From a virus: a stretch of 46,626 nt of DNA. Location of the stretch: UHGV virus genome UHGV-0207793; one strand, 5' to 3'. The stretch's first letter is position 1; the number at the start of each line of letters is the position of its first letter. A program made the translations under genes and the position numbers. The notes under the pieces were generated by a model that was not told the origin of the DNA, did no database searches, and saw nothing but the letters and a program-made list of their open reading frames with translations. Positions 3,894 to 24,455 of this stretch are shown piece by piece.

Positions 3894-4513
3894 TGGAACA
3901 ACGCACCCCAGAATGGTTTGCCGCTCGCTGCGGAAAAGTTACAGCCAGCCGCCTTGCTGACGTCATGGCCAGAACCAAGTCTGGCTATGCAGCAAGCCGA
4001 CAGAACTACATGGCCGAGCTGATTTGCCAACGCCTCACCGGGAAGCTTGAAGAAGGTTTCTCCAACGCCGCAATGATGCGCGGAACAGAACTCGAGCCGG
4101 TAGCGCGCGAAATGTATGCGCTGAATGAGTTCGATGCCGAAATCACTGAGGTGGGGCTTATCGATCACCCAACTATACCAGGATTCGCAGCAAGCCCTGA
4201 TGGGCTTGTTAATGGTGATGGGCTTATCGAAATTAAGTGCCCCAACACCTGGACTCATCTTGAGACCTTAAAAACTGGCGAGCCAAAACGCCAGTACCTG
4301 CTGCAGATGCACGCTCAGATGATGTGCACAGGGCGTAAATGGTGTGATTTCGTTAGTTTCGACGATCGTCTACCGCCAGACCTCGCCTATTTCAAAAAGC
4401 GCATTCACTTCGACGAAGCACTGGCAAATGAGATTGAGTCCGAAGTGAAAAAGTTCCTGGAAGAGCTGGAGAAAGAAATTTCCAGCATAAAAAACCACGA
4501 CCATGCCGCATGA
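3890..4513 (+). CDS. exo: YqaJ-type viral recombination exonuclease (lambda Exo functional analogue)
   Basis: N-terminus MEQRTPEWFAARCGKVTASRLADVMA typical of the YqaJ family; ATGA overlap with RecT gene. Confidence 0.85.
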   Translation: MMEQRTPEWFAARCGKVTASRLADVMARTKSGYAASRQNYMAELICQRLTGKLEEGFSNAAMMRGTELEPVAREMYALNEFDAEITEVGLIDHPTIPGFAASPDGLVNGDGLIEIKCPNTWTHLETLKTGEPKRQYLLQMHAQMMCTGRKWCDFVSFDDRLPPDLAYFKKRIHFDEALANEIESEVKKFLEELEKEISSIKNHDHAA

Positions 4514-5069
4514 GAAAGGCAGGCACGAAAAGAGGTGCGCAATGACTGATTATGGCGGATCGAAAACTCCAAAAAATGAACGTGACTACTGGCAAACGCC
4601 GATTGAAATTTTCAACGCGCTCGACCGCGAGTTTGGCTTCTGGCTGGATGCTGCAGCCTCTGAGAGTAATGCGCTATGCGCTCACTACCTCACTGAGCTG
4701 GATGACTCGCTGAACAGCGAATGGACGTCGTACGGCGCGATATGGTGTAACCCGCCCTATTCCGATATTGGGCCGTGGGTAGAAAAGGCTGCTGAGCAAT
4801 CCAGGGCGCAGTCTCAGGCTGTAGTGATGTTGTTACCGGCTGACATTTCTACCGGCTGGTTTATTTCAGCCATGCAATCAGCTGATGAACTCAGACTCAT
4901 AACCGGCGGCCGTGTTCAGTTTGTTCCGGCATCCGTTACAGGAAAGCGAAAGAGCAACCCCAAAGGCTCGCTCCTGTTTATCTGGCGCCCGTACATCACC
5001 CCGCGACACATCATCACGTCTGTATCGCTGGCTGAGTTAAAGCGGATCGGGAATCTGGAGGCAGCATGA
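4503..5069 (+). CDS. phage DNA N6-adenine methyltransferase (Dam-like)
   Basis: motif IWCNPPYSD (NPPY catalytic motif); probable true start at MTDYGGSK (about 4542). Confidence 0.8.
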   Translation: MPHEKGRHEKRCAMTDYGGSKTPKNERDYWQTPIEIFNALDREFGFWLDAAASESNALCAHYLTELDDSLNSEWTSYGAIWCNPPYSDIGPWVEKAAEQSRAQSQAVVMLLPADISTGWFISAMQSADELRLITGGRVQFVPASVTGKRKSNPKGSLLFIWRPYITPRHIITSVSLAELKRIGNLEAA

Positions 5070-5287
5070 CGCCAGAAGAAAAAGAAAACGCTCTCCGCGC
5101 CCAGGCTCGTCGCTGCGCAGAAGAGATAACCAAAGCGATGAGCGTAAAGCCTAAACCTAAGTGGAACGCTGTATGCCCCCCCATCCTTCGCAAGCACTAC
5201 GAGAAGGTAAAGCCGATGGGTGTCAGTCTGGTGAAATTTGTCAGTGTTATTGGCCGCATGAATGGTCGGTATGGAGTGGAATCATGA
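5066..5287 (+). CDS. hypothetical 73-aa protein
   Basis: ORF translationally coupled on both sides (ATGA overlaps). Confidence 0.4.
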   Translation: MTPEEKENALRAQARRCAEEITKAMSVKPKPKWNAVCPPILRKHYEKVKPMGVSLVKFVSVIGRMNGRYGVES

Positions 5288-6003
5288 AAGAGCGCGGAAT
5301 GATTTTTAACGGGGAAATGACGCGAGCAATTCTCGACGGTCGGAAGACGCAGACCCGGCGGATTATGAAAGCCCAGCCGTCAGAAGACTTCACGCCGATG
5401 AATATGGCACTTGAAGCAGATTATAAAGCGCGCTGGTACACGCCTGGCATTGTCGATAAGGACGGTTGTTTGCAGCCGGCGGGGAAAGAGGTGTTTGGTG
5501 TTGCCAATGAAAACGAAGGTTATTCCTGCCCGTTCGGCGCTGTCGGCGACCGCATCTGGGTGCGTGAGGCTTATCGTTTCCCGGCATCATTAGACGATGT
5601 TAGCCCAACTGGTGTTGGTGAAATGGCTGTGGCAACAGGATACAGAAAACCATGGGCGCCGACCTTCTACGAGTTTACAGGCACTTTCAGTGATGGATGG
5701 AAAGGATTCGAAACCCCTCCAAAAGTTTCTGACGCCGGAAAGCTTCGCCCATCAATCCACATGCCTCGCTGGGCCAGTCGCATTCTGCTGGAAATCACCG
5801 ACGTGCGGGTTGAACGGTTGAAGAGTATTAGTGATCGCGATGCGCTACGCGAAGGGTGCAGTGCCGCCGACATGAAGAGTGGCGACTGTGTAGCTGATGT
5901 GTTCGCGCGCCTGTGGGCTTCAATCTACGGTGCTGAAAGTTGGAATGCCAACCCCTGGGTTTGGGTTATCGAGTTCAAGCGCGTTGAAGGCGGTGCAGCA
6001 TGA
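5284..6003 (+). CDS. ASCH/PUA-like domain protein
   Basis: MKERGMIFNGEMTRAILDGRKTQTRR N-terminus typical of ASCH; the tool's longer ORF (5161) probably starts at this internal ATG with GGAG RBS. Confidence 0.6.
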   Translation: MKERGMIFNGEMTRAILDGRKTQTRRIMKAQPSEDFTPMNMALEADYKARWYTPGIVDKDGCLQPAGKEVFGVANENEGYSCPFGAVGDRIWVREAYRFPASLDDVSPTGVGEMAVATGYRKPWAPTFYEFTGTFSDGWKGFETPPKVSDAGKLRPSIHMPRWASRILLEITDVRVERLKSISDRDALREGCSAADMKSGDCVADVFARLWASIYGAESWNANPWVWVIEFKRVEGGAA

Positions 6004-6191
6004 ACAGAGCCTCTCCCGTTGATTTAAGGAAATGCCTTGAGGCCGCACATGGCCTAGCTCATATCGGCATCCGTTTTGTGCCGATCCCGGTAGCGACAGA
6101 GGAAGAGTTCCAGGCACTGTCTGCCGAGCTTTCACGAAAGCTTGAGCAGATGGCGGTTGAAGCGGAAAAAAGCGAAGGAGGTGCAGCATGA
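6000..6191 (+). CDS. hypothetical 63-aa protein
   Basis: ORF in operon context, overlapping neighbours. Confidence 0.35.
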   Translation: MNRASPVDLRKCLEAAHGLAHIGIRFVPIPVATEEEFQALSAELSRKLEQMAVEAEKSEGGAA

Positions 6192-6406
6192 GCGCAGAAC
6201 TCATCGATCAGGCCAACGAACTGGCAGAGCGCCGGCTGGAAATGACCATCCAGAACATGCGCATCAACCATAACGCAGTTTCAGCTACTCACTGCCGAGA
6301 CTGCGGGGAAGAGATACCCGAGCGGCGCCGGGAACTGGTGGCGGGCTGCCAGCGCTGCGCTGACTGTCAGGAAGAAGAGGAATTGCGCGGTAAGCATCGG
6401 AGGTGA
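6188..6406 (+). CDS. TraR/DksA-family C4 zinc-finger protein
   Basis: CRDCGEEIPERRRELVAGCQRCADC four-Cys motif. Confidence 0.6.
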   Translation: MSAELIDQANELAERRLEMTIQNMRINHNAVSATHCRDCGEEIPERRRELVAGCQRCADCQEEEELRGKHRR

Positions 6407-6407
6407 T

Positions 6408-6743
6408 ATGGCGTCAGACAAACCGATAACAGCTCAGCAGGCCGCCGACTTACTCATCGTGTCGGCGCGGGTAATCTACCGCCTGATTGAGTCAGGAGAA
6501 CTCGCCGGCCGCAAGGTCGGCAACAAGTACAGAACGACCGAAGCGGCATGTATTGCGTATTTGTCATCCCCGCAGGAAACTAAACGAGCGAACGCGGGTG
6601 AGCATAAAGGAGATATTTTATGTCCATCACCCTCAGAGGCGGCATGTGGCACTGTCATTTCTTTACGCCGTCAGGGAAAAGAGTTAGGCGATCTCTTGGC
6701 ACGGGGGACAAAAAGCAGGCGCAGGAGCTCCACGATAAGCTAA
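6408..6743 (+). CDS. xis: excisionase / AlpA-like HTH DNA-binding protein
   Basis: [35 protein letters not shown] immediately upstream of int; the ORF runs 124 nt into int, so the true stop is uncertain. Confidence 0.5.
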
Positions 6744-7783
6744 AGGCTGAAGCATGGCGGGTTGACCAGATCGGCGACCTGCCTGTCAGAACCTTCGAAG
6801 AGTGCTGTATCCGGTGGCTGCGGGAGAAAGACCACAAGCGGTCGCTGGATGATGACAAAACCAAAATTGAGTTTTGGCTGCAGCATTTTTCCGGCCGTGA
6901 TGTATCAAAAATAACGGCGGAGGAAATTCACGAAGCCGTTAACGGGATGATCAACCGTAAGCACCTGCAGGTATGGGAGAGTAAACGTGATGCCGCGTTG
7001 AGGAAGGGTAAGCCGATACCGGAGTACAAACCACGGCAGGTTTCGCAGGCTACGAAGGCGCAACACCTTTCCTTCATTCGATCCCTTCTCAGGGCCGCGG
7101 CGAATGACTGGGGCTGGATAAAAACAGCTCCTGTTATCAAAACCCGCAAGCCGATCAGTAAGCGGATACGGTGGCTGACCAGAGAAGAAGCTGAGCGGTT
7201 GATCGAGTGCATGCCGGAGAGCATTAAGCCAGTGGTGATATTTGCACTGGCAACCGGCCTGCGCCGCTCAAACATCATCGGGCTTGAGTGGCAGCAGGTC
7301 GATATGCAGAGAAAGGTTGCATGGGTAAATCCGGAGAACGCAAAAGCGGGCAAGGCGATTGGCGTAGCTCTGAATGATACCGCATGCAGGGTATTAAGGG
7401 ATCAGATAGGGAAGCATTCCCGGTGGGTGTTCGTTCACACCACGGCAAAACATCGCCCGGATGGAACACTGACGCCCGCGGTTAGAAAAATGCGTGTGGA
7501 TGACAATAACGCCTGGCGCGCCGGGTTGAAAAAAGCGGGGATCGAGGATTTCCGTTTTCACGACCTCCGGCACACCTGGGCGAGCTGGCTTATTCAGTCC
7601 GGCGTCCCGCTTTCTGTCTTACAGGAAATGGGAGGATGGGAGAGCATCGAGATGGTACGTCGTTATGCTCACCTGGCGCCGAACCACCTGACCGAACACG
7701 CACGGAAAATTGACGCCATTTTTGGCGCTAGCGACACAAATACGACACAAGGAGGAAATCAGGCTGGATTAAAACTGGCGTAA
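6620..7783 (+). CDS. int: tyrosine site-specific integrase
   Basis: 387-aa ORF; C-terminal catalytic region with [15 protein letters not shown] and MVRRYAHL (R..H-x-x-R..Y); strong RBS AAAGGAGA; adjacent to att. Confidence 0.9.
7732..7750 (-). repeat. arm-type repeats (TTGTGTCGT x2) on P side of attP
   Basis: CGACACAA twice, 11 bp apart; same motif repeated in opposite orientation right of the core. Confidence 0.4.
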
Positions 7784-7798
7784 GTTATTGTTTCTTAA

Positions 7799-7843
7799 TG
7801 GTACGCCCTACAGGGTTCGAACCTGTGACCTACGGCTTAGAAG
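7799..7843 (-). other. attP core: 3' half (anticodon loop to CCA) of a tRNA-Arg(UCU) gene
   Basis: Reverse complement reads CTTCTAAGCCGTAGGTCACAGGTTCGAACCCTGTAGGGCGTACCA (anticodon loop, variable loop, T-arm, acceptor 3' strand, CCA); no matching 5' half follows, so it is an att duplication rather than a gene. Confidence 0.6.
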
Positions 7844-7903
7844 AAAGTAGAGCGTTAAATAACTCACTGTAATCACACATATTTACCGCGTTCGCATCCG
7901 GTT

Positions 7904-7921
7904 TTGTGTCGTTTCGTGTCG
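7904..7921 (+). repeat. arm-type repeats (TTGTGTCGTTTCGTGTCGT) on P' side of attP
   Basis: tandem T(T/C)GTGTCGT copies inverted relative to 7732-7750. Confidence 0.4.
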
Positions 7922-8153
7922 TTTGAATACATCCCTGTCTTTATCGTGCATTCCTGTCACGCCACAACTACGACACACCCGTCACGCGAATTCTCCCAGG
8001 ATCAGGATTCCATCCGTTCCATCTCCTGAGATGCCAAAATCTGCGAGCAGCTATCCAGAACGCAAACTCGCCGATTTACCTCATCATCAGAACGGCGCAT
8101 CATTAGCACGCTAGTTAATCATGTAATTTTCGGTGCGCACCACTCTTTCATGG

Positions 8154-8471
8154 TTAAACAGCTACGCTATCGCTTCGCACATCACAAATGACATGCGTCA
8201 CAACGCCGGCGACAGTGACATCGTCCAGGGCCTCGCCTTCTATTGCTTCGCCATCTTCGGTTATCAGCGACCGCCCTCTCAGCGTGGCAAGTTCAGTCCC
8301 GCCGCCGTGCTGGATAAGAACCTGACTACCCTGCTTTGGCTTCAGGGAAATATCCAGCACAACATAACCGCTATCCCTTTCGAAAACGCGAGTGTTAGGC
8401 CCGACATTGCAGATCGAGTTAACGGACAGTCGCTGCTCGACGTAGTCCGTCGCGGGTGAAGGAAAGCCCAT
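8154..8471 (-). CDS. UmuD'-like (HumD-like) S24-family translesion-synthesis accessory protein, begins at the UmuD cleavage-site equivalent
   Basis: MGFPSPATDYVEQRL matches UmuD' N-terminus GFPSPAADYVEQRI; C-terminus EALDDVTVAGVVTHVICDVR matches EDTLDVFGVVIHVVKAMR; TAATG coupling to upstream gene. Confidence 0.6.
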   Translation of the reverse strand: MGFPSPATDYVEQRLSVNSICNVGPNTRVFERDSGYVVLDISLKPKQGSQVLIQHGGGTELATLRGRSLITEDGEAIEGEALDDVTVAGVVTHVICDVRSDSVAV

Positions 8472-8710
8472 TAGATCACCCTCCCCATGTTGGCCATCAT
8501 CCACAGTCTGTTTTCGCTATGGTCCGGCGTCTTATCGACAAAATACGTCTGCTCGCGAGCGATCCAGGAGTTCGCCTCCACCTCGGTAAAGTGAATGCCG
8601 CGCCGGCGAAGCGCAGTAACGAAGTCGCGGGTGTGAAGGTACTGGTATCCTTTGGCGTTGCGCAATACCGACTCGCGGAAAGCCGCGGCGATGTCTGACT
8701 GTCGAAGCAT
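8471..8710 (-). CDS. hypothetical 79-aa protein, first gene of LexA-box-controlled operon
   Basis: internal ATG with GAGGG RBS; the tool's longer ORF (to 8755) would contain the LexA box; no recognisable family. Confidence 0.5.
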   Translation of the reverse strand: MLRQSDIAAAFRESVLRNAKGYQYLHTRDFVTALRRRGIHFTEVEANSWIAREQTYFVDKTPDHSENRLWMMANMGRVI

Positions 8711-8728
8711 GATCTGCCCTCTGATGAA

Positions 8729-8748
8729 TACTGTTTTTATATACAGTA
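8729..8748 (-). promoter_or_regulatory. LexA (SOS) box TACTGTTTTTATATACAGTA overlapping putative -10
   Basis: perfect CTGT-N8-ACAG with AT-rich spacer, 19 bp upstream of the 8710 start; -35 TTGATC 17 bp upstream of TACTGT. Confidence 0.6.
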
Positions 8749-9048
8749 GTTTCATTGGAAGATCTGATCAATACAGGTTACAGCTATCGATCAGACGCAC
8801 CGACGCAACGCAATGATTTTAAGAGGCTGGCAGGTACTTATATAGCGTCTTCACATTCACTCCTATCACATCGGCTACCTGCTGACGAATTGCGCCGTTG
8901 TCCCGTACGGCGATTTGTCTCCTATAAATACCGCCTACACAGTGATTCCATTAAGATAAAAGACTTAAAAACATAGAGGCCGTCACGCAAAAAAAAACCA
9001 ACAACATATTGATAAATAAATGAAATTATAATAATTATTGGGTTTAAT

Positions 9049-9078
9049 TTGTAAATTTCTTTAGGTGCTGTTTATAAT
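9049..9078 (+). promoter_or_regulatory. putative sigma70 promoter for the sugar-transferase gene (-35 TTGTAA, -10 TATAAT)
   Basis: 18-bp spacer in an extremely AT-rich stretch. Confidence 0.3.
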
Positions 9079-9138
9079 TTGAAACTTACTGCAACAAAGC
9101 GTATACTCCATGCATCCACTGCGAGCAGGGTTCATGAA

Positions 9139-9729
9139 ATGCTTAAAATGAGATTTTTCGACATTTTGATAGCATCTATATTTCTGATAATTGCTTGTCC
9201 GTTTTTTATCATTCTATCTATTTTAATATGGACATCAGGATCAAAGCCATTTTTCAAGCATAAACGAGTTGGCCTCAACGGGAAGGAATTTTACTGTTTA
9301 AAATTCACATCAATGAAAGGCCTGAATGAAATAGAAGAAGCAGAACAAGAGCGAGTTATATTTGAACTGGATCATTTTGGCAAAGTCAATAATGATCCAA
9401 GAGTAACAAAAATAGGTAATTTCATCAGAAAGACAAGTATTGACGAAACCCCACAATTTTTTAATGTTCTAAAAGGAGATATGTCGCTGATTGGCCCCAG
9501 ACCTATTACTAAGGCAGAGATGAAGATTTATGGTACAAAGATAAAGTCATACTTATCAGTCAAGCCCGGAATCACTGGATTATGGCAAATATCAGGGAGA
9601 AGCAATACAACATACTCTCGCAGAGTGGCAATTGATCATTATTACGCATTAAAAAGAACAAGAAGGATGAAAATAATGATAATGATGAAAACCGTATATG
9701 TCGTTTTATTTATGAAAGGGGCTCAATAG
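9139..9729 (+). CDS. small monotopic phosphoglycosyl transferase (Bac_transf / PglC-WbaP C-terminal type, undecaprenyl-phosphate sugar-1-phosphate transferase)
   Basis: FDILIASIFLIIACPFFIILSILIW membrane segment, KFTSM, DPRVTKIGNFIRKTSIDETPQFFNVLKGDMSLIGPRP, PGITGLWQISGRS; very AT-rich island; the tool's TTG start at 9079 is unlikely. Confidence 0.8.
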   Translation: MLKMRFFDILIASIFLIIACPFFIILSILIWTSGSKPFFKHKRVGLNGKEFYCLKFTSMKGLNEIEEAEQERVIFELDHFGKVNNDPRVTKIGNFIRKTSIDETPQFFNVLKGDMSLIGPRPITKAEMKIYGTKIKSYLSVKPGITGLWQISGRSNTTYSRRVAIDHYYALKRTRRMKIMIMMKTVYVVLFMKGAQ

Positions 9730-14819: not shown

Positions 14820-15286
14820 ACGGTGATTAGCCCGGGATAGTCTTTCGTGGTGTAAATGATGGAGTTGGCCAGCGTCAGCGGGTTAGTCTTTCCGGCGGTC
14901 ACGGTGACGTTGCTGGCATCGGCTGAAATGTCGTTCACGTAAAGCGTCCAATCTTTCAGGGATGTAGTGTCACCGATCGCATTCCACTGCTGATACAGGC
15001 ACTTTATCGGCGTCATGCGCGCCGCCCCGCGCCAGCTTTTCAGTGTCTGCCGGACATGCTCCGTCGCGGCGACAAAGGTTATCGTCATGGATATCACTGC
15101 CGTTCCGTCCTGCGCCGGTTCTGTTACGCTGAACCGCGCAGGCTCGAATGAGTTGCCGCCAAACGTCGCCGGGCGAAAAAGGTTATTGACCACCCGGTAA
15201 TAACCGAAAGCCGGATGGTAAAACTCCACCGTCTGTTTGATGTCGCTCGCCGGCCGGCGCTCCTTCCACTCTCTCAAAGTCGGCAT
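14816..15286 (-). CDS. minor tail protein L-like
   Basis: position between M-like and K-like genes; translational coupling. Confidence 0.55.
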   Translation of the reverse strand: MPTLREWKERRPASDIKQTVEFYHPAFGYYRVVNNLFRPATFGGNSFEPARFSVTEPAQDGTAVISMTITFVAATEHVRQTLKSWRGAARMTPIKCLYQQWNAIGDTTSLKDWTLYVNDISADASNVTVTAGKTNPLTLANSIIYTTKDYPGLITV

Positions 15287-15762
15287 TAGTCAGCCCTCGG
15301 CATCACTTCGGTTATCAGGTAATCCAGCCAGTATCCATAGCCAGGCTGGGCCTCAACAATCCAGTCGTCGTAGTCCTCGGTAATGTCCTCGATACCGTTG
15401 CTTATGACCGTTGCGGTCCAGGTGACAATGTTGCCGTTTTTGCTGGTCTGCACCGGCATATCGACGAAATGCAGCGTCTGCTGCTGAACGCCCTGCGTAT
15501 CACCCAGGTCGATCGGCATCTGGAACCAGTTACGCCCGCGGTCGCAGTAGGTCGGCGATCGCAGCCATGACTTAAACCGCTCGGCTTGAGCAATCGTGAA
15601 TATCCACTGCAGCGTCCAGGTTGCTTTCAGGTCCGTGGTAATCGGCGTAATTATCAGGGGACCAACTGCCGTCTGCGTCGTCTGCCAGGCTGTATCCTGC
15701 GTCATGTTCTGATCGGCGCGCTGGGGAAGCGGCAGGAACGGAGGGTATTGAACTGTTGCCAC
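15286..15762 (-). CDS. minor tail protein M-like
   Basis: follows tape measure; probable GTG start at 15762 after GGAGGA (the tool's MPGGN start lies within the repeated element). Confidence 0.5.
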   Translation of the reverse strand: MATVQYPPFLPLPQRADQNMTQDTAWQTTQTAVGPLIITPITTDLKATWTLQWIFTIAQAERFKSWLRSPTYCDRGRNWFQMPIDLGDTQGVQQQTLHFVDMPVQTSKNGNIVTWTATVISNGIEDITEDYDDWIVEAQPGYGYWLDYLITEVMPRAD

Positions 15763-15815: not shown

Positions 15816-18417
15816 CTTGCGCTTTACGACTTAATCCAAATGTCTGCTGCATCTGAGAGGATACCGGGCCGCCTCTTTCCATGTCGGTGATCAGTAAGTC
15901 CACCACCGCACTACCGTCCTGCATGTAGCCGTTGGCACTCTGTACGGTGGCGCCGGTAGACTGGTTGATGACGTTCACCTGCACGCTGATCCCTCCTCCT
16001 GACTGCATATCCTTATTGCTGATGACCTTCCCGTTATCGCCAGGGATCATGTACTGCTTGCCGGTGCTGGCCTGGTAAATCTCTGGCTTGCCTTTCTCGC
16101 CGATCTGGTACAGGCCGCCGGCTGAGACCGGTCCGCCATTGTAGCGAGCGCCGGCAAGCGCAAGCCCACTGGCAAGCCCAACTGTCGAACTGATACCAGC
16201 TGCAGCCGGACCAGCGTTAGCACCGAACGAGGCGAGCGATGCCATCGCGGCCGCCGGAGCCCAGGCTGATGCGGTAGTTGCCGCCAGCCCGACTGATGTC
16301 GCCACCGATGCAGCGCCAAGCGTCTGACCGAGGATGTAGTTTTTCAGCGCTTCGATGCCCACCTGGACAATGCTGTTGATCACGCTGTTCAAGATGGTGT
16401 TGCCGAGCGACCGCATCGCCTCCTGCGCTGACATTGTGCCGGTTAGCAGGCCGGTGATTGCATTGGAGGCATTCCCGCTAAAGGCATCCACCGCACTCGT
16501 CAGCATGTTATAACCGAGGCTCTGCTGGCTGAGGATTTCCCATTGAGCTGCGATCCGCTGCTGCTCATACTGCCGGTCAGCGGCATTTTTCAGCGCTAAT
16601 GCATTCTCATGGGCGAGAACTCCTTGTTGCTCGAACTGCTGAATCAGCGCCAGCTCCTGCGCGTGCTGGTTGGCCAACTGCTGCACCGGGTCAACTTCGG
16701 CAAGTGCCTGCTGGGTGGGGTTAACCACCTGCTGCGAGCGTATTTTGGCAAGGTTGGCCTGATGCTGCTGCTCCATCTGCTCAGTGGCTGCGTTGTACTC
16801 CTGCAGATCAATCTTCCCGGCGTTCAGCGCCGCTTTCAGGTTCTGCATGGATTCAGCGTAGGATTTATTCTCAGCCTGTTCCGGAATGGCATTAAGCGCC
16901 TCTGTTACCCCCTTCGCCGCTGCGGCTGCATCCCATGCGGCTGCTGCGTATTTGCCTGCTTCCTGGATTTGAGCCTGAGTAGCTGATTTACCGAGAGACT
17001 GCTGCGCACGCAATATCGCCTGCTCACGGCTCAATTCCTGAGTTGAGTCCGCTGCAAGCTCAGACTGCTGGCGAAGGTTTTCGAGTTTTTGGGCAATAGA
17101 ATCTGCGGTAGACGCCGACTGCTTCCCGGCTTTGTCGCTTTCCTTCCTCGCCTCCGTAACCCGATAGGTTTCGGCGTATTCGTCCTGCAGCGCTTTTATT
17201 CGCTTCGGATCGGTCACCCCAGCATCAGCTGCATCATATTGGGCCTGAAGCCTGGCTCGCGCCTCACCCTCAAGTTTGGCCAATGCAAGACGGCGCTCAG
17301 AGTTTTGAACCAGCTTCTTGGTTGCGGCGTCATCACCTTTGGTCGGCGGCGCATTAAACTGGTTGCTTCCGGCGTCCTTCTGAGCCTTTGCTCGAATGTG
17401 GGCTATTTCCCCCTCGATCTGCTTCAGCTGCACTGCTGCCTGCGCCCTTCTGGACTGAAAAACTGAGTCAGTTTCATACCATCTCTGGCCGTCTTTCAGC
17501 TCATTGTTCAGATCCTGCTGGAGTTTGATCAGCTTCGGCATTCTTGAAGAATCGCCGACATTGTTGTTGTAGTAATTGAGGTTATCCGCGACGCTCTGCA
17601 TTAATCCTGCAAGGGTCGTGGTCAGGCCTATTGCCTGGTTCAGGTCGTTAATAGCATTTTTGAAGGCCACATCGAGGCTGTTCTTTGCGCGATCAATGCT
17701 GACCGGCATTTTTTCAAATTCAGCGTTAACTGACCTGGATTGGCTTTGAATAGCATTGAGTGCATCTTGTGCAGTAAGTTTTCCCTCTAGCATTCTTTTA
17801 CGCAGATCGCCGATTGAAATCCCTAAGCCAGCTGCTATTTGCCTTGCCAGTTCTGGCATCTGCTCAATTACTGAGTTGAATTCTTCCGCTTGTATAACGC
17901 CTTTCGCCATCGATTGGCCAAACTGGCGCAAAGCGTTACTCATCTCTTCAGCAGATGACCCTCCTATCGTCCCAATCTTTTGAAGAGTGGCTGTCAAAGA
18001 TAGAACTTGAGCATTGGTTGCCCCTGTTTCCTTGAGAGAGGTTGTTAAAGATTCCCATAATTTTTCCGTCTCATAAAGCCCGCTTCCTGTTTGTGATGCA
18101 ATAGCAGATAAAGAGGCTAAAGTATCTTTAGCTGCATCAATACTGGGGCTTAACCTAGCTATCCTCGCCTGTAGCGTAACCATCTCGTCGCCGATGGCGA
18201 TAAGCTTCTTCGCTGCATCAATGGTGAAAGCTGCTGCAATGGCAACGCCAACCTTGTTTAAAGCACCTTCAAACCGCCCGGCAGATCGTGACGATTGCTC
18301 AAACTTAGAATCCATCTGATCAAGGCGCTTATTAACCTGCTGCTGGGCTTCGATAAGTCTGGCGACATTCATCTCTACTTCGTAAACGATATTGCCAACC
18401 TGTTCAGCGCTTGCCAT
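15805..18417 (-). CDS. tail tape measure protein
   Basis: about 870 aa, Ala/Gln-rich coiled-coil, upstream of M/L/K; start taken as ATG at 18417 after GGAGGAAAC. Confidence 0.85.
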   Translation of the reverse strand: MASAEQVGNIVYEVEMNVARLIEAQQQVNKRLDQMDSKFEQSSRSAGRFEGALNKVGVAIAAAFTIDAAKKLIAIGDEMVTLQARIARLSPSIDAAKDTLASLSAIASQTGSGLYETEKLWESLTTSLKETGATNAQVLSLTATLQKIGTIGGSSAEEMSNALRQFGQSMAKGVIQAEEFNSVIEQMPELARQIAAGLGISIGDLRKRMLEGKLTAQDALNAIQSQSRSVNAEFEKMPVSIDRAKNSLDVAFKNAINDLNQAIGLTTTLAGLMQSVADNLNYYNNNVGDSSRMPKLIKLQQDLNNELKDGQRWYETDSVFQSRRAQAAVQLKQIEGEIAHIRAKAQKDAGSNQFNAPPTKGDDAATKKLVQNSERRLALAKLEGEARARLQAQYDAADAGVTDPKRIKALQDEYAETYRVTEARKESDKAGKQSASTADSIAQKLENLRQQSELAADSTQELSREQAILRAQQSLGKSATQAQIQEAGKYAAAAWDAAAAAKGVTEALNAIPEQAENKSYAESMQNLKAALNAGKIDLQEYNAATEQMEQQHQANLAKIRSQQVVNPTQQALAEVDPVQQLANQHAQELALIQQFEQQGVLAHENALALKNAADRQYEQQRIAAQWEILSQQSLGYNMLTSAVDAFSGNASNAITGLLTGTMSAQEAMRSLGNTILNSVINSIVQVGIEALKNYILGQTLGAASVATSVGLAATTASAWAPAAAMASLASFGANAGPAAAGISSTVGLASGLALAGARYNGGPVSAGGLYQIGEKGKPEIYQASTGKQYMIPGDNGKVISNKDMQSGGGISVQVNVINQSTGATVQSANGYMQDGSAVVDLLITDMERGGPVSSQMQQTFGLSRKAQGAY

Positions 18418-18468
18418 GTTTCCTCCGGGCATAAAAAAACCCGCCGAAGCGGGTTTGCTTTATTTTTA
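18415..18468 (-). repeat. terminator + RBS + start cassette (copy 2)
   Basis: catgtttcctccgggcataaaaaaacccgccgaagcgggtttg, near-identical to 15765-15815. Confidence 0.5.
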
Positions 18469-18473
18469 GAAAA

Positions 18474-18989
18474 TTATATCTTGCCTTGAAGTTTGTATTG
18501 TAAATATTTTAACTTTGATGAGAATCCAGAATTAATTTTATTACCTACTGATTCGATAGTAACGTCAACGGAAGGCAATGCATTACCATCAATTATCACA
18601 GACTCAAGAGAGGCCCAATCCTCACTGAAAATATTGTATTCACATTTACCCAAACCTTTTAGTTGTACTCCAAAAGCATTGCTTGCCTGAAAATCCACAA
18701 ATATATCGGCGTTTTTAAGCGTAAAAAGCCCGTTTCTCACCCCATCGCGCAAAGACTCAACCTGAAGGCTTTCAATCTTTTTGTTAAGTTCTTCTCCTGA
18801 CAGCTGCTTAGAGCTGATAAGGGCCTTTTCCATCGAGTAGGAGGACGGTGATTTCATTCTCGATTTGATTATTGAGCTACATGCTTCTGTCATTGCTGCG
18901 TTTTGAGCATACCGAGTCGGTACCAATGCGATTGCGGCAACAATGCCACCCATTACAACTAACAAACCGAAAACAATAAGCTTCTTCAT
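18474..18989 (-). CDS. AT-rich moron: signal-peptide-bearing secreted/periplasmic protein of unknown function
   Basis: MKKLIVFGLLVVMGGIVAAIALVP signal-like N-terminus from internal ATG; AT-rich; own terminator downstream. Confidence 0.5.
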   Translation of the reverse strand: MKKLIVFGLLVVMGGIVAAIALVPTRYAQNAAMTEACSSIIKSRMKSPSSYSMEKALISSKQLSGEELNKKIESLQVESLRDGVRNGLFTLKNADIFVDFQASNAFGVQLKGLGKCEYNIFSEDWASLESVIIDGNALPSVDVTIESVGNKINSGFSSKLKYLQYKLQGKI

Positions 18990-19088
18990 ATCCCTATCCC
19001 CATCAGTAAATGATGCGGCAATCCTATCAGGTATGCGGGGGAACGACAAAACCCTCCGAAAAAGGTTTGATTTTTAAGTGTTATTGTT

Positions 19089-19499
19089 CTATTGGGCTAC
19101 GTAATCATGTTCTGCAACAATATCATTACGGTAGTCGGATAGAATCCTCAATGCGAAGGCTGTTTCATTCAATTGGGCGTCCCCCATTGCTGCAAGTACT
19201 GTAAGTTTGACCAACTCGAATGAAGCATTTAGCTCATACCCGTTTCCCAATAAGAAAATGCTGGCAGCTTGGAATGCGGTTCGCTTATTTGCATCGTTAA
19301 ATGCGTGAGCCTTGGCGATAGCAATCAGATACATAGCAGCAAAATCAAAGATATCTTTGCATCCTTCATACTCAGCCAAAGTTTCAATTCGGAACAAAGC
19401 CCCACCAAGCTTATCTTCATCAGGAGGTCCACTCATAGGTAGGGTAGAGCGCTGAATTTCGATAACCTGTTCAGTGGTCAGAAACGCAATCTCATCCAT
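19089..19499 (-). CDS. doc: Doc (death-on-curing) toxin, Fic/Doc family
   Basis: AHAFNDANKRTAFQAASIFLLGNG matches P1 Doc GHIFNDANKRTALNSALLFLRRNG. Confidence 0.8.
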   Translation of the reverse strand: MDEIAFLTTEQVIEIQRSTLPMSGPPDEDKLGGALFRIETLAEYEGCKDIFDFAAMYLIAIAKAHAFNDANKRTAFQAASIFLLGNGYELNASFELVKLTVLAAMGDAQLNETAFALRILSDYRNDIVAEHDYVAQ

Positions 19500-19828
19500 T
19501 ACTTATCTTCCAGAGCTTTGATAATTTTGGCGTGCTTCTTCTTGGTCCGCTTAAGAGCGTCCTCAAAAGCATGGGTCGATAAAGTACCAGCAATTACCGA
19601 GCCAACTACCGGAACGATTTTTGTGAAGTCATCGTCACACTCACGATACTTTATCTCTTTGGACATAGTAGAATCGACAAGGTGACAGCAAGCATTCTTC
19701 GCACGCCATCCATTTAAGACAGTATCGGGTTTTCCTCGCTGCGTAACGACAACTGTTTCCCCATCCCGGATTGCATCCAAAATGTCAGAAAGCTCTGCTC
19801 GCATCTGGGTATAGCTGATTTTGCGCAT
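19499..19828 (-). CDS. phd: Phd/YefM-family antitoxin (with C-terminal extension)
   Basis: N-terminus ISYTQMRAELSDILDAIRDGETVVVTQRGKP is YefM/Phd-like; TAATG coupling to doc. Confidence 0.7.
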   Translation of the reverse strand: MRKISYTQMRAELSDILDAIRDGETVVVTQRGKPDTVLNGWRAKNACCHLVDSTMSKEIKYRECDDDFTKIVPVVGSVIAGTLSTHAFEDALKRTKKKHAKIIKALEDK

Positions 19829-19842
19829 ACATCACCTCATCT

Positions 19843-19858
19843 CTTGTACATGTACAAG
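19843..19858. promoter_or_regulatory. perfect 16-bp palindrome CTTGTACATGTACAAG upstream of phd, putative Phd/Doc operator
   Basis: located 15 bp upstream of phd start. Confidence 0.45.
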
Positions 19859-19900
19859 TTAGCATATGGCGATCAGAATTTATAGTAGATGAGGAAATTG

Positions 19901-19936
19901 AAACCCCGCTGGAGCGAGGTTTGGTTTTCGAAGCAC
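19901..19936 (-). repeat. degenerate third copy of the terminator cassette (aaaccccgctggagcgaggtttggttttcgaagcac)
   Basis: about 80 percent identical to copies at 15781-15815 and 18435-18462. Confidence 0.4.
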
Positions 19937-19966
19937 TAATTAGTGCTTAGATTTATTCTCAGATAG

Positions 19967-20710
19967 TTAGGCTACATCTGCGCCATGGATCAGGTGGCGC
20001 AATGCCTTTACACCTTCTGCATTGTAGCGGAACGCCTCAACCTGCTTATCTGAGTGTCTCGACTTATCCAGAAAGAACTTGCCGTACTGCTCTGTTTTCA
20101 GATTGTGTTTATTAGCCACGCGACCGATCTTGTTCGCTGTGCAACCAAGCTGCGCCGCCACTTCACCCGCCGTAGAGTAATGCTCTTCAATCGCTGGCAG
20201 TGGCACAACTTCGTGACCGAGAAGCGGGTTAACAAGGGTGGCAACGATCACCTGGTTAGCCGATTCACCAAGCCGAGGGAACATTGACATCAACTCCCGA
20301 GCCGATGCGATGTTTTTCTCCAGCGCCTGAGCTTTCAGTTGCTCTGCTTTGGCAAGCCGATATTCAGTAAGCCCTGAGGTACTTTTGGTCGGCACCTGGA
20401 TAGCCTGCATGTCTTCCAGCTTATCAACCAAAGAGCGGCGAACAGCCTTAGATTCGCGTGCTGCCACGCGCAGTGCCTGCTTGATGGACATTTCAGCGAT
20501 TTCAATTTCAGCGCCGTTTTTATGACCTACAAAAATTTTGTAGGTCTCCCCCTCTAATTCATCGTGAATGCGCTCGATAAACACATTGTTGCGAACCGGT
20601 TTCTCGCCGCATTGCTTGCGGGCCTGGTTGACCATTTCAAGCAGTGACTGGCTGTCAATAGTTTTATCAGTGACAATTGAACCTACATTTGCTACATTCT
20701 TAGAAGTCAT
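19967..20710 (-). CDS. antirepressor-like protein (Rha/KilA-C-type regulatory protein)
   Basis: 247-aa ORF after Bro-N antirepressor; C-terminal region typical of phage antirepressors. Confidence 0.5.
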   Translation of the reverse strand: MTSKNVANVGSIVTDKTIDSQSLLEMVNQARKQCGEKPVRNNVFIERIHDELEGETYKIFVGHKNGAEIEIAEMSIKQALRVAARESKAVRRSLVDKLEDMQAIQVPTKSTSGLTEYRLAKAEQLKAQALEKNIASARELMSMFPRLGESANQVIVATLVNPLLGHEVVPLPAIEEHYSTAGEVAAQLGCTANKIGRVANKHNLKTEQYGKFFLDKSRHSDKQVEAFRYNAEGVKALRHLIHGADVA

Positions 20711-20782
20711 TCGACATTCCTTATGTGGTAGTAAGGGTGTGACATAAGCCGCCAGCTGTAACTGGCGGTTTTTCTTTTTGCA

Positions 20783-21487
20783 TCATTGCAACATCTCCTG
20801 ACGCAGGTGTGGTAATACCCTGCTCCAGTTATCATCCTTCCATGGGTGAAATTCGATATGCGCTGTCTCGCGCTTGATTACTTCTCTTGCCTTGTTAATC
20901 GATCTCGGATACTCCTGACCGATCGAATGAAAGTGTCCTGCCTGGCGATGCTCTGCCACTCTCAGTAAAGGTGTGACGCTATTGCAGGCTTTGAGCATGA
21001 CGTCGCTGGCCCGCCATAACCATGCCAGAGAGCAAAGATCTTCGTCACTGAACTGCTTCGCAATCGGCGAATGCGCCACTTCCCGATCCAGAATATCCAG
21101 CACCCAGCGGCGGAACTCTTTGGCCTTTGGCGTGCGAGCAAACATCGCTACAAGATGGGCGCCACGCAGAGAAAAAACGCGCGCTTCCTGCTTTCCTGAA
21201 GGGGTGGTCAGTTTGACCACCCCTGTCATTTGTGCTGTAAATTCATCAGCATGGCGTGAGTAGATGCGCTGCACGGCTTTATCGTCAGCGTACTCCAGAG
21301 CCTGACCAACCTCAGCAGCCGTAAGCCAGACCTGACCGCCCATTTCCATATATGAAAAATTGGTATTGTGGAAACTTAGCTCTTTGTTCTGTACAATATT
21401 CATGTCGATATTTCCTTTCCGGGATTTGTTCGATAAGGAGCCCTGACTATCGCAAGTAGTTAGGGCTTCGTCGTTTTTACTGACCAT
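20783..21487 (-). CDS. ant: antirepressor Ant (Bro-N domain)
   Basis: Bro-N signature region FHNTNFSYMEMGGQVWLTAAEVGQALEY...RVFSLRGAHLVAMFARTPKAKEFRRWVLDILD; follows arc-like gene. Confidence 0.7.
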   Translation of the reverse strand: MVSKNDEALTTCDSQGSLSNKSRKGNIDMNIVQNKELSFHNTNFSYMEMGGQVWLTAAEVGQALEYADDKAVQRIYSRHADEFTAQMTGVVKLTTPSGKQEARVFSLRGAHLVAMFARTPKAKEFRRWVLDILDREVAHSPIAKQFSDEDLCSLAWLWRASDVMLKACNSVTPLLRVAEHRQAGHFHSIGQEYPRSINKAREVIKRETAHIEFHPWKDDNWSRVLPHLRQEMLQ

Positions 21488-21662
21488 TCATGCGCTCCTC
21501 ACGCAGGCTTTTTGCCAAACGCTGCACAATTGCAGAGTTAATCGATATCCCATCCATTTCAGCCATACGGCGGATCTCTTCCTTCATTCCTTCTGGCAAA
21601 CGCAATTGGAAGCTAGAGCTTTTTCTTTCTGTATATAAAGTATCCATATCAATCCTCATCAA
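21477..21662 (-). CDS. arc: Arc-like ribbon-helix-helix repressor
   Basis: 61 aa; FQLRLPEGMKEEIRRMAEMDGISINSAIVQRL resembles P22 Arc FNLRWPREVLDLVRKVAEENGRSVNSEIYQRV. Confidence 0.6.
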   Translation of the reverse strand: MMRIDMDTLYTERKSSSFQLRLPEGMKEEIRRMAEMDGISINSAIVQRLAKSLREERMNGQ

Positions 21663-21664
21663 TC

Positions 21665-21679
21665 ATGTCACCGTGACAT
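21665..21679. promoter_or_regulatory. 15-bp perfect palindrome ATGTCACCGTGACAT in the arc/mnt divergent intergenic region (immI operator-like)
   Basis: further half-palindromes TCACTGTGACT and TGATATCA follow. Confidence 0.45.
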
Positions 21680-21740
21680 GATATCACTGTGACTCAATTT
21701 ACGGATAATGTCAATGTGATATCATCAAGAAAAATTTGAG

Positions 21741-22052
21741 GTGCTTATGTCAGATAAACCAGTCCGTGAATACGATAAATTCATGCTCCGTTTCCCAGAT
21801 GGCATGCGCGATGCCATAGCCGAACGCGCCAAGGCTAACGGCAGATCAATGAATTCGGAGATCGTCAGTATTCTCGAGGAAAGATTGTATTGTGGTGATG
21901 GCGATCTCGATGATATGGACGTCAATGAAATGCTGGAAGTCATAAAAATGCAGCGTGATCTTTTGAAGAAATACAGTGAATTAGTTGAAAGAGGCTCTAA
22001 AACCCTTCAGGAGATCTCAGAAACTCTTAAGAACAACAAAAAGTCCACCTGA
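21741..22052 (+). CDS. mnt: Mnt-like RHH repressor
   Basis: FMLRFPDGMRDAIAERAKANGRSMNSEIVSILEE resembles P22 Mnt FNFRMPMEVREKLKFRAEANGRSMNSELLQIV; divergent from arc/ant. Confidence 0.65.
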   Translation: MLMSDKPVREYDKFMLRFPDGMRDAIAERAKANGRSMNSEIVSILEERLYCGDGDLDDMDVNEMLEVIKMQRDLLKKYSELVERGSKTLQEISETLKNNKKST

Positions 22053-22224
22053 ATGTTAAAGAGCGACCGGAAAGGCCATTAAACCGCCTGCTGCCGCTAC
22101 TGTAAACATTTCATTTTCTATCAATTACTTAAGTACGATTACTCACGATTAGATACGATGAATCATGAGTAGATATGGTGAGTTCGAGGTATTTTGTGGG
22201 CATCAATTAAATAGCACTAATTGC

Positions 22225-22254
22225 AAAAAAGCCCACCTGAGTGGGCTGTCTTTT
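22225..22254. terminator. bidirectional intrinsic terminator (gcccac-ctga-gtgggc flanked by A6 and T-run)
   Basis: downstream of mnt on + and of the HNH gene on -. Confidence 0.55.
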
Positions 22255-22257
22255 AAG

Positions 22258-22835
22258 CTATTCAGCCCTTGCAAGCTCAATGGCTTTGATGTTTATGTCA
22301 ACCTTCTTTTGAGCATATGAGCCGTGATACTTTAGCGCGCCCGCGTTGTATGCAAGAGCCGCCTGTATTGGGCAGTCGAACATACCTAAACGTATGTTTT
22401 TCTTATTGTGCGCAACAACTGCCATCCATTTAGCTTCCCGTGACGCCCAAAAGACACCGATAAAACCAGAGCTATTGTTTTTTTGCATGCCAACATTAGA
22501 CATGTTTTGGCTTCTGTTGACACACCGTAGGTTTTCTATGCGGTTGTCACACTTATTGCCATTAATATGATCCACATCGCCTTCAGGCCATAACCCATGA
22601 TGCATGCACCATATAACCCTATGGCAGAGGTGATGCTTCTTGTTCACACGGACATATAAATATCGTCAGTTCAACGAGCTGGACGCCTCCTTTCCGGTAA
22701 ACCTGCCATTAAATCGGTTCATAGCGACTTCGCTAGTGAAATGATGGATTGGACGGCGTCTCCAGGAAAGCAATCCTGTATCAGGAGCATAATCAAAGCA
22801 TTCTAAAAGATAGCGCTGACTTAAATGGTCATTCA
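22258..22835 (-). pseudogene. HNH homing endonuclease with AP2 DNA-binding domain, interrupted by an in-frame TGA at about 22666-22668
   Basis: N-terminal fragment MNDHLSQRYLLECFDYAPDTGLLSWRRRP (HNH_3-type N-terminus) runs to SSSLN-stop and continues in the same frame into RYLYVRVNKKHHLCHRVIWCMHHG...DHINGNKCDNRIENLR (HNH), then the AP2 domain GFIGVFWASREAKWMAVV. Confidence 0.5.
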
Positions 22836-22906
22836 TTCTAAACCTCGTAGCAGGTTCCGTAGATGGCAGGTGCGCCAGAGCGGTCTACGTTCCGCCTTTT
22901 CGGGAG

Positions 22907-23623
22907 CTACCCTAGACGCTTGTTCATTTTACCAGCTTCTTCAGCCGCAAGCATTGCATTCCAACGTTTATCATCCTCACTCATTACGGAGTCAAACTCC
23001 TCTCTGGTGAAGCCCTTTTGGTTTGGATATTTAGCATTCAGAAGTAAGCTGAATTCTGTCATCGTGAGGTTCTCGGCCTCTTCCCGGCTTATGCCGAAAT
23101 GGTTGCGGGCCGCCATGATGTAGTCGGCTGCGCGGAATTCTGCGGTTGTCTCATTCGTTTCGTAACGCTGCAGCTTACGCACCTTCGCTTTGCCGATAAT
23201 GCCGTGCATCATCAGGTTTTGCGCGACGATGACCATGCTTTCTGGCGGCATGCTGCCCGGGCGCCACACGAAGCCACGCTTGCGTGATTTCCCCGGCTTC
23301 ATCCAACCAACCAGATCGCCGATATCATCGTCACAACATGCTGTCAGTACCGTGTGAGCAGCCATGATCGCTTTGCGTGACAGGAGCCCGCTTTGCATAA
23401 ACCGCAGGACGCAATCAGGAAGGCGGCTGTACTCATCGCGGATATAAGCCTCGGCTGCGCGCTGCGCGAATGATGTCGTCTCGTCGTTGCACAGGTCATA
23501 GAACGCCTGAACAATCTCCTCGGGCTCACCGATTCGCGCCATGTTGCGAAACGACGGCCGGAAAAAGAATTCCCGGTCACCGGTACCGATAACGCATTCG
23601 CCTAATTCTTTAATCGGGGTCAT
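22907..23623 (-). CDS. putative tail assembly chaperone (G/T-like)
   Basis: position between major tail and tape-measure genes; C-terminal FGISREEAENLTMTEFSLLLNAK T-like segment. Confidence 0.4.
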   Translation of the reverse strand: MTPIKELGECVIGTGDREFFFRPSFRNMARIGEPEEIVQAFYDLCNDETTSFAQRAAEAYIRDEYSRLPDCVLRFMQSGLLSRKAIMAAHTVLTACCDDDIGDLVGWMKPGKSRKRGFVWRPGSMPPESMVIVAQNLMMHGIIGKAKVRKLQRYETNETTAEFRAADYIMAARNHFGISREEAENLTMTEFSLLLNAKYPNQKGFTREEFDSVMSEDDKRWNAMLAAEEAGKMNKRLG

Positions 23624-23690: not shown

Positions 23691-24455
23691 TTAACTGATA
23701 GTGACCGTGCAGGATGCAGACGTGATCTTGACTGGTGTCGCGGAAGAATCGGTAACTTCACAGGTATAGGCCCCGGCATCACCGGAAACAGCGCTGGCCT
23801 TGTTGAAGGTCGCCGTTGTTTGCCCGCTTACAACCGTGCCGTCTTTCTTCCAGACGTAGGTGTAAGGCGAAGTGCCACCCTCAACCACGACCGACATATT
23901 CAGCGCCGATCCGGCCGTCACGCTCTTGGTCGTCGGCAGGTTGGTGGTGAACGCCAGCGCCGGCGGAGCGACCTCAAATACCACGGAGTCTGCATCAGCA
24001 ACTTTCCACTCCCCAGAGAAGGTCGAAATATCCGAGGTGCCGAAATCACCAGACCAGGATGTGGTGTTGAAGTAGCCCATGATATAAGTGCCAGCGTCTT
24101 CACCAGTGAAGTCGAAGCGAACCCATACTGTCGGCTGACGGCCGGCCTGCACTTCATCGAAAATATATTTCGAGATGGCAATAGCGCCGACTTCCGTCGT
24201 CTTGTCCTTCTTGCGGAATTCACCTTCTCCGGAGATGGTGAAGTCCATATTGTTGACCAGGTTCTCAACCAGCCCCTTTGTATCGTCAGCCTCAGAGGAG
24301 ACGGTATTCATGGAGTAGTCGAAGCCCTTGGTGGTCATGGCGCCGAGTCGCTTCCATTCGGAAAGCGCAGGAACCGTATCAGCACAGCCAAAAGCCATGC
24401 GGAGCACGGCCACCTTACCAATCAGCTTGCCGGTGTCATTAGCGCAGCCTTGCAT
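23691..24455 (-). CDS. major tail protein with C-terminal Ig-like (Big_2) domain
   Basis: 254 aa; C-terminal TSPYTYVWKKDGTVVSGQTTATF...GAYTCEVTD Ig-like repeat. Confidence 0.7.
   Translation of the reverse strand: MQGCANDTGKLIGKVAVLRMAFGCADTVPALSEWKRLGAMTTKGFDYSMNTVSSEADDTKGLVENLVNNMDFTISGEGEFRKKDKTTEVGAIAISKYIFDEVQAGRQPTVWVRFDFTGEDAGTYIMGYFNTTSWSGDFGTSDISTFSGEWKVADADSVVFEVAPPALAFTTNLPTTKSVTAGSALNMSVVVEGGTSPYTYVWKKDGTVVSGQTTATFNKASAVSGDAGAYTCEVTDSSATPVKITSASCTVTIS

Follow-up and report, generated by a model that had tools for sequence, protein, structure and literature searches.

A probable P22 immI-type secondary immunity cassette between the tail genes of a Klebsiella lambdoid siphophage

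What is a cluster of repressor and antirepressor genes doing in the middle of a tail-gene operon? The question is raised by the virus genome UHGV-0207793, a stretch of 46,626 nucleotides (hereafter the window), in which an island of about 4.5 kb (18433-22906) extends from the stop codon of a DUF6246 gene to the start of the tape-measure gene, with a base composition that drops from 55-59% guanine plus cytosine (GC) in the flanks to 41-51% within. The initial annotation had described a 3.8-kb block between the tail-chaperone position and the tape measure; the location was right, while the extent was too short and left out an HNH gene. Our analyses indicate, with a probability of about 0.78, that the island is an "ant moron", that is, a mobile immI-type secondary immunity cassette homologous to the mnt/arc/sar/ant region of phage P22. 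As judged by comparison with related phages, it occupies a known moron slot in the late (tail) operon of a Klebsiella lambdoid siphophage, with three independent passengers on its flanks, namely a decayed HNH gene, a phd-doc pair and an orphan gene for an exported protein. Compared with known immI regions, the new features are a Bro-N antirepressor, a second downstream gene, two predicted antisense units and three similar predicted operators, and the conserved palindromes inside the antirepressor genes are the only surprising element of the island. Functions were assigned throughout by homology.

The genes listed in the initial annotation, as well as the two palindromes that it had pointed out, were present where it had placed them, and both palindromes were exact. 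The centre of the cassette consists of two divergent genes for ribbon-helix-helix (RHH) repressors, of which the arc-like one heads the ant operon. The mnt-like gene (21747-22052, plus strand; likely start ATG 21747) encodes 101 amino acids and the arc-like gene (21477-21647, minus strand; likely start ATG 21647) encodes 56, and both products matched the Pfam Arc family (E-values of 4.5e-17 and 7e-12, respectively). In the comparison with P22 that the initial annotation had called for, BLASTP showed 40% identity between the arc-like protein and Arc, and 43% identity between the mnt-like protein and Mnt, confined to the RHH domain (residues 6-47); gene order and orientation matched as well.

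The 100-bp spacer between the two repressor genes contains three versions of one 21-bp site, which are predicted to be symmetric operators overlapping the divergent promoters P_ant and P_mnt. The predicted operator O1 (21662-21682) is a perfect palindrome, and O2 (21678-21698) and O3 (21705-21725) are imperfect copies of it. The arc/mnt palindrome ATGTCACCGTGACAT, noticed earlier as perfect, is so, though it proved to be only the core of O1; the expectation for palindromes with 10-nt arms is 0.11 per shuffled window. O1 and O2 cover the P_ant candidate, an extended -10 element TGATATCAT at 21678-86 on the minus strand, and the spacer and -10 of the predicted P_mnt (TTTACG-16-TATCAT, 21698-25) fall within O3. 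Among relatives, at least five Arc/Mnt specificity types were distinguished, and the operator repeats and the RHH beta-strand residues changed together from type to type. A search by eye for a LexA box in the arc/mnt intergenic region found none.

The arc-like gene is followed by ant1 (20783-21403, minus strand; 206 amino acids from ATG 21403), whose product combines a Bro-N domain (Pfam, 1.3e-11) with a P22_AR_C domain (3.5e-16) and matched phrog_245 (Ant) with an E-value of 7e-60. The C-terminal P22_AR_C domain aligned to residues 206-274 of P22 Ant. Next comes ant2 (19967-20710, minus strand; 247 amino acids), which matched phrog_1726 "anti-repressor" at 1.3e-89 and, more weakly, phrog_130 and phrog_63 "Ant". 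The protein is named "hypothetical protein" in public genome records, and a 100% identical copy was found on 297 Klebsiella contigs. The antirepressor role already suggested in the initial annotation is a putative one, based on PHROG 1726 and on gene context. Profile searches supported all of the Arc, Mnt, Bro-N and Doc assignments, which had been put forward beforehand as refutable by such searches. Downstream of ant2 lies a perfect 18-bp palindrome AAGCACTAATTAGTGCTT (19931-19948, minus strand), which recurs 3' of ant2 in many relatives and is followed by a weak terminator-like hairpin (19903-19915); the region 19903-19948 is the probable 3' end of the arc-ant1-ant2 transcript.

A further component of immI, overlooked in the earlier reading, is a predicted sar-type antisense RNA across the arc-ant junction. 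In the terminator scan, two hairpins with T-runs appeared on the plus (antisense) strand, one at 21437-21469 and one at 20746-20771, both of them downstream of a plus-strand promoter-like site at the start of an ant gene, which is the geometry of P22 sar. The predicted sar1 unit (21369-21481, plus strand) has a promoter TGGAAA-17-TACAAT at 21369-21397 and an RNA of approximately 21404-21480, which spans the arc-ant1 junction and forms two stem-loops, the same two-hairpin shape as in P22 sar, with a fold z-score of -5.9. The Rfam sar model (RF00262) matched 21405-21473 on the plus strand over its full length (model positions 1-68 of 68; 30.7 bits, E = 0.003). RNAalifold found no pairs when it was applied to this junction in a plain MAFFT alignment, and, since the alignment was structurally inconsistent, covariance models were used instead. 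A model built on window-type sequences (model R1) gave one match per locus at the arc-ant junction of about 60 related loci and also recovered the annotated P22 sar at 15018-15090 (25.4 bits, E = 0.004). In the resulting alignment, which was fitted to the covariance model and hence leans towards structure, 87% of cells were paired, as against 31-58% in shifted registers, and 23 of 25 pairs showed changes on both sides, a result reached by 0 of 500 shuffles; the margin is large. With sar1 in this position, the start of ant1 would be ATG 21403, as in P22, rather than 21487, where the longest open reading frame (234 amino acids) begins; upstream of ATG 21403 the "codons" and the hairpin vary together, and in-frame stops occur in 3 of 50 variants.

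The second antisense unit, sar2 (20670-20782, plus strand), is likewise a prediction from the sequence. An extended -10 promoter (GTGACA-17-TGcTACATT, 20670-20698) would give an RNA of approximately 20704-20782 that starts 4-6 nt inside ant2, covers the ant2 start codon and Shine-Dalgarno sequence, and ends at a terminator formed by the hairpin 20746-20771 and its T-run (fold z-score -3.2). The Rfam sar model did not match sar2. The corresponding covariance model (R2) gave one match just downstream of ant1 in 66 loci, in an alignment with 97.9% of cells paired and eight pairs with changes on both sides, and a near-consensus antisense promoter (TTGACT-17-GATAAT) occupies the same place in those variants whose downstream gene encodes a different N-terminus.

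The comparison with P22 thus extends over the whole cassette. P22 immI likewise has divergent Arc-family RHH genes, with arc followed by a P22_AR_C antirepressor, an antisense RNA that runs from the ant start codon to a hairpin beside the arc stop codon, and palindromic operators at overlapping divergent promoters; it also lies inside the late structural operon, with the same gene order and orientation relative to that operon. The differences are that the window belongs to a siphovirus and carries the cassette between DUF6246 and the tape measure, whereas the P22 site is between genes 16 and 9; that another gene (PHROG 1726) follows downstream, accompanied by a separate sar-like unit; and that the predicted promoters share -35 regions back to back, whereas those of P22 are fully superimposed. 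The P22 immI region in the late operon has itself been described as an "ant moron", with high turnover among P22-like phages (PMC2629481).

The distribution of the cassette was determined in 80 IMG/VR loci fetched through homology to Ant1. At least 28 loci have it between DUF6246 and the tape measure; in another nine, DUF6246 is upstream but the contig ends or the tape measure was undetected. One sampled locus (L008) contains an identical full island. Two loci (L023 and L041) carry the cassette between baseplate hub and wedge genes of a different tail type. In two further loci (L056 and L057, approximately 4500-9200), the cassette was observed between the major tail protein gene and DUF6246, a third insertion point in the same tail module. 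The initial annotation had described an immI architecture relocated into a tail operon; the homology to immI held, but the idea of a one-off relocation did not, given that P22 immI is itself in a late operon and that the same site is used so often.

Two Klebsiella phages, ST11-VIM1phi8.1 and ST512-KPC3phi13.1 (MK448233 and MK448235), contain an Arc/Arc/Bro-N/antirepressor cassette at the same site, between a DUF6246 homologue and the tape measure, with an Arc protein 100% identical to that of the window and the same O1 core. They differ in lacking Phd-Doc, in having a different exported protein and different mnt-side genes, and in the N-terminal part of the second antirepressor. Whether relatives have the tail chaperone directly adjacent to the tape measure was a check proposed earlier; in close relatives without the cassette, the DUF6246/tape-measure junction holds other cargo, and other morons occupy it in Salmonella phage ES18 and in other Klebsiella phages. 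In ES18, which has a related tail module, the junction between gene 17 (DUF6246) and the tape measure contains low-GC genes with their own terminators. These "possible morons" include a small lipoprotein gene (gp20) just before the tape measure, which is unrelated to the exported protein of the window, and the ES18 cargo consists of a DUF4041 protein and unrelated small proteins, with no RHH or antirepressor genes. Literature searches turned up no account of such an arrangement in a siphovirus, nor of a second sar or of the palindromes within ant1 and ant2.

From these features, the following mechanism is proposed. In a lysogen, the Mnt-like repressor, transcribed against the late operon, would bind the 21-bp operators over P_ant and silence arc-ant1-ant2, so that the S24-type CI repressor of the phage could maintain lysogeny. 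On infection of a cell without Mnt, P_ant would fire, Ant1 and probably Ant2 would inactivate CI-type repressors, and Arc would subsequently shut P_ant down. The two cis-antisense RNAs, running from the ant start codons to the antisense-oriented terminators, would block translation of ant1 and ant2, including that from Q-antiterminated late transcripts, which must traverse the island to reach the tape measure. Phd-Doc would be autoregulated at its TGTACA palindrome and would act as an addiction or abortive-infection module, and the exported protein would be a moron expressed in the lysogen.

Several results weigh against this interpretation. The C-terminal half of the mnt-like protein showed no similarity to the P22 Mnt tetramerisation domain by BLASTP, and O1-O3 resemble variants of a single site, whereas in P22 O_arc and O_mnt are distinct. 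The promoter scan missed P_ant and the phd promoter, which were recognised by eye. The Rfam score of sar1 (30.7) is below the gathering score of 43, whereas a genuine P22-type sar scores 97.8, and the longer ant1 reading frame from ATG 21487 is still open in most relatives. In Ant1, Bro-N replaces the N-terminal domain of P22 Ant, with no P22_AR_N match in Pfam, and ant2 had no Pfam or NCBIfam match. The AlphaFold model of Ant2 was of moderate quality (predicted local distance difference test, pLDDT, of 68; predicted template-modelling score, pTM, of 0.35), and Foldseek gave no match of this model in the PDB at E <= 0.001, for which reason a function based on fold was dropped. The weak Foldseek matches that did appear were all to winged-helix domains of the RacA/BldC/Xis kind, and sequence searches of Ant1 and Ant2 against the PDB gave nothing meaningful.

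In the most probable of the alternatives, the Bro-N and PHROG-1726 proteins are DNA-binding effectors rather than antirepressors of the phage's own CI, serving cross-induction of other prophages in the host, host takeover or anti-defence, with the Arc/Mnt/sar circuit merely limiting their toxicity. Bro-N is a widespread DNA-binding domain, the C-terminal domain of Ant2 weakly resembles winged-helix DNA binders, Ant1 and P22 Ant have only the C-terminal domain in common, and the cassette moves among phages whose primary repressors are probably different. Nevertheless, that common domain, P22_AR_C, is the one that Ant1 shares with a genetically proven antirepressor, the complete regulatory circuit including sar is conserved, and PHROG labels both proteins as anti-repressor, so that we consider this alternative unlikely, if still worth keeping in mind.

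A second alternative is that unrelated morons came to lie side by side by chance, without integrated regulation, and that the palindromes and hairpins represent either terminators or scars of recombination. The island is indeed a mosaic, as Phd-Doc was found in 2 of the 80 loci, the exported protein of the window in 3 and the HNH gene in 3. Its end also points to recombination at boundary sequences. The terminator that closes the island (18437-18456, minus strand), directly upstream of the tape-measure ribosome-binding site, is almost identical to the one at the end of P22 immI: in a blastn comparison with P22 15990-16210, the hairpin with its tail TTTTTTTATGCCC (18433-18460) was identical to the P22 ant terminator region at 24 of 25 positions. 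The P22 counterpart lies at 16012-16041 of locus L006, a similar sequence occurs in locus L130, and this terminator and tail may serve as a common boundary or linker when cassettes are exchanged. The mnt-arc-sar-ant1-(sar2)-ant2 core, however, travels as a unit: Arc and Mnt were both present in 51 loci and Ant2 in 59, in three late-operon contexts. In addition, covariation backs the RNA structures and the operators co-vary with repressor type. A chance assembly is therefore very improbable, and an integrated immI-type cassette accounts better for these data.

The palindromes inside the antirepressor genes were characterised further. The window contains four perfect palindromes (arms of at least 8, spacer 0-1), all of them within 19843-21682, and across relatives long palindromes have a density of 0.65 per kb in the cassette compared to 0.054 per kb in the flanks. 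One of the four is a perfect 23-bp palindrome within ant2 (20524-20546), 164 nt after the ATG. When 13 DNA variants were aligned without gaps and anchored on codons, 93.7% of its cells were Watson-Crick pairs, 6 of 11 pairs changed on both sides, there were almost no G-U pairs, and the covariation score was reached by 0 of 500 shuffles. The changes in the arms alter amino acids and appear as reverse-complement codons (for example ACC/GGT, TTT/AAA and CAC/GTG). The same palindrome is nearly unchanged in noncoding DNA at P22 16085-16107, between the ant terminator and gene 9, within a short ant2-like remnant, and in locus L130 (4555-4604) two of its variants form a tandem pair in noncoding DNA between the antirepressor stop codon and the terminator.

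Within ant1, 179 nt after the ATG, there is a hairpin AGGGGTGGTCAGTTTGACCACCCCT (21200-21224) with an 11-bp stem and a 3-nt loop. It is kept at +178 to +181 as far as the Bro-N homologues of Oxalobacter and Marinicellulosiphila, and a hairpin score of at least 8 was obtained for 71% of homologues in this segment, compared to 0-1% in four control segments of the same gene. The arms of the ant1 palindrome, too, change in concert and replace amino acids by way of reverse-complement codons. P22 ant has a perfect 16-bp palindrome at +184 (15275-15290 of locus L006). No Rfam family covers the intragenic palindromes. As to their nature, two candidates were rejected: the ant2 palindrome is not an Arc/Mnt operator, because loci with identical Arc/Mnt types differ in the palindrome variant, and covariation between protein beta-strands does not apply, because nothing but reverse-complement codons links the paired residues and because one palindrome is also present in noncoding DNA. 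We tentatively propose, at somewhat less than even odds, that the ant1 and ant2 palindromes are an undescribed cis-acting element of ant morons, kept despite coordinated amino-acid changes. In that role they might be sites of mRNA processing or decay, of the RNase III type or another, through which Ant would be expressed only transiently, targets of a symmetric DNA-binding protein of varying specificity, or recombination boundaries that mobilise or diversify the cassette. They may also be self-correcting quasipalindromes.

Beyond the cassette core, the island includes a toxin-antitoxin pair. The phd antitoxin gene (19499-19828, minus strand; 109 amino acids) matched PhdYeFM (6e-9) and TIGR01552 (33.7 bits, cut-off 20.8), with only the first 38 residues of the protein matching the family profile. 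The doc toxin gene (19089-19499, minus strand; 136 amino acids) matched Fic/Doc (3e-10), TIGR01550 DOC_P1 (70.2 bits, cut-off 38.65) and the Doc-like toxins of phrog_577 (3e-31). The catalytic motif of Doc is HxFx(D/N)(A/G)NKR, which the sequence HAFNDANKR in the translation fits. The antitoxin precedes the toxin, and the phd stop codon overlaps the doc start codon (TAATG). A perfect 16-bp palindrome CTTGTACATGTACAAG with TGTACA cores (19843-19858) lies 15 nt upstream of the phd ATG. It had been reported as a palindromic operator, and its symmetry is exact, but by itself it is not beyond chance, since about 1.4 palindromes with arms of at least 8 are expected per window. By analogy with what is generally known of the YefM/Phd family, CTTGTACATGTACAAG is a plausible Phd/Doc autoregulatory operator. 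The Phd-Doc pair of P1 has the same antitoxin-then-toxin order, stop/start overlap, Doc catalytic motif and upstream palindrome, and both family profiles were passed; the difference is that the pair of the window is in a phage late operon, while that of P1 is on a plasmid prophage. The view that immI had been combined with an addiction module is borne out as far as the family profiles are concerned, but given its rarity among the loci, Phd-Doc is an occasional passenger and not integral to the module.

The presence of this bona fide pair next to the cassette, together with weak matches of the arc-like protein to HicB and CopG antitoxin profiles, could suggest that the RHH gene and the genes downstream of it are themselves a toxin-antitoxin or abortive-infection defence, with an RHH antitoxin and a Bro-N-type toxin, but this is hardly credible, as PADLOC gave no match for the two RHH and two Ant proteins and the divergent two-RHH layout with sar fits immI, unlike a toxin-antitoxin operon.

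The second passenger is at the downstream end of the island. The gene for an exported or membrane-anchored orphan protein (18474-18989, minus strand; 171 amino acids, likely start ATG 18989) has a GC content of about 40%. The product belongs to phrog_20018, a family of unknown function, and only seven clusters of homologues, all from Klebsiella, were found in a search of 5.8 billion proteins; Pfam, NCBIfam, PADLOC and PDB gave no meaningful match. It has a predicted N-terminal hydrophobic helix (residues 2-22), and its structure model was poor (pLDDT 44). The secreted, AT-rich protein with its own terminator of the initial annotation was thus recovered in its composition, its hydrophobic N-terminus and the terminator at 18437-18456, with the qualification that it is an orphan restricted to Klebsiella. 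A putative promoter, TTGTCG-17-TAGGAT, was read by eye at 19017-19045. Approximately 70 nt upstream of the gene (18981-19054) are 86-95% conserved in Klebsiella phages that have a different small exported-protein gene before the tape measure, and it appears from this conservation that the promoter and the junction before the tape measure stay constant while the cargo varies. Extra genes in the late operon, variable among relatives, with their own terminators and with deviant composition, are the features of morons, and all of these were found for the island. The gene of the exported protein is itself moron-like.

The third passenger lies at the upstream end, beyond a bidirectional terminator-like hairpin (22230-22247) between mnt and the HNH gene that was detected in the terminator scan. 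This homing-endonuclease gene with HNH_3 and AP2 domains (22258-22836, minus strand) is interrupted by a single in-frame TGA at 22666-22668. In a relative (locus L043) the codon reads GGA and the gene is intact. The single TGA and this intact copy give the gene the look of a recent pseudogene, which it probably is.

The window as a whole is a complete lambdoid temperate phage. It encodes a primary CI/CII/integrase set, namely an S24-type CI as the primary repressor (37-759, plus strand), CII (within 46105-46530, minus strand) and an integrase (6620-7783), and also a DnaB-type helicase. Identity to Klebsiella prophages is 90-95% in its head and tail genes, and the head genes are about 80% identical to those of ES18. 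An STnc100 late leader RNA (Rfam) was identified at 37227-37413 on the minus strand, from which it follows that the late operon runs leftwards through the island, in the order terminase, head, major tail protein (23691-24455), DUF6246, island and tape measure. Directly downstream of the STnc100-type leader there are two tRNA genes (36867-36940 and 36949-37020, minus strand). Near the tail-fibre end, a bacterial sugar transferase gene (9079-9729, plus strand; Pfam Bac_transf, 4.8e-57) may provide a lysogenic-conversion function.

The genes that flank the island were examined as well. Upstream, the DUF6246 gene (22907-23623, minus strand; Pfam DUF6246, 8.6e-82) stands at the position of the tail chaperone, and its product shows 27% identity to gp17 of ES18, whose annotation reads "possible +1 frameshift". 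A motif resembling Rfam int-alpA (22872-22919, minus strand; 31.7 bits against a gathering score of 35.8, E = 0.0009) overlaps the DUF6246 stop codon, at the upstream edge of the island. Downstream, the tape-measure gene (15805-18417/18432, minus strand; Pfam TMP_3, 6.5e-52) likely has its true start at ATG 18417. The 5' third of this gene (17300-18432) has a GC content of 46-48%, compared to 56-61% in the remainder, and the similarity of relatives to it falls mainly in the C-terminal part. On account of this GC step and of the C-terminal bias of the matches, the mosaic breakpoint seems to be inside the tape-measure gene, and the acquired segment may be larger than the island.

Taken as an immI-type cassette, the island indicates that the regulatory circuit of P22 immI, including its antisense RNA, is not peculiar to P22-like podoviruses, and that immI is a mobile cassette that enters the late operons of siphoviruses and baseplate phages of Klebsiella and related Enterobacteriaceae. 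Antirepressors are able to cross-induce other prophages of the same cell, and the cassette may for this reason influence how stable prophages are in clinical strains of Klebsiella. A textbook regulatory system gains testable extensions here, in the doubling of the antirepressor gene together with its predicted antisense unit and in the covarying palindromes of the coding sequences.

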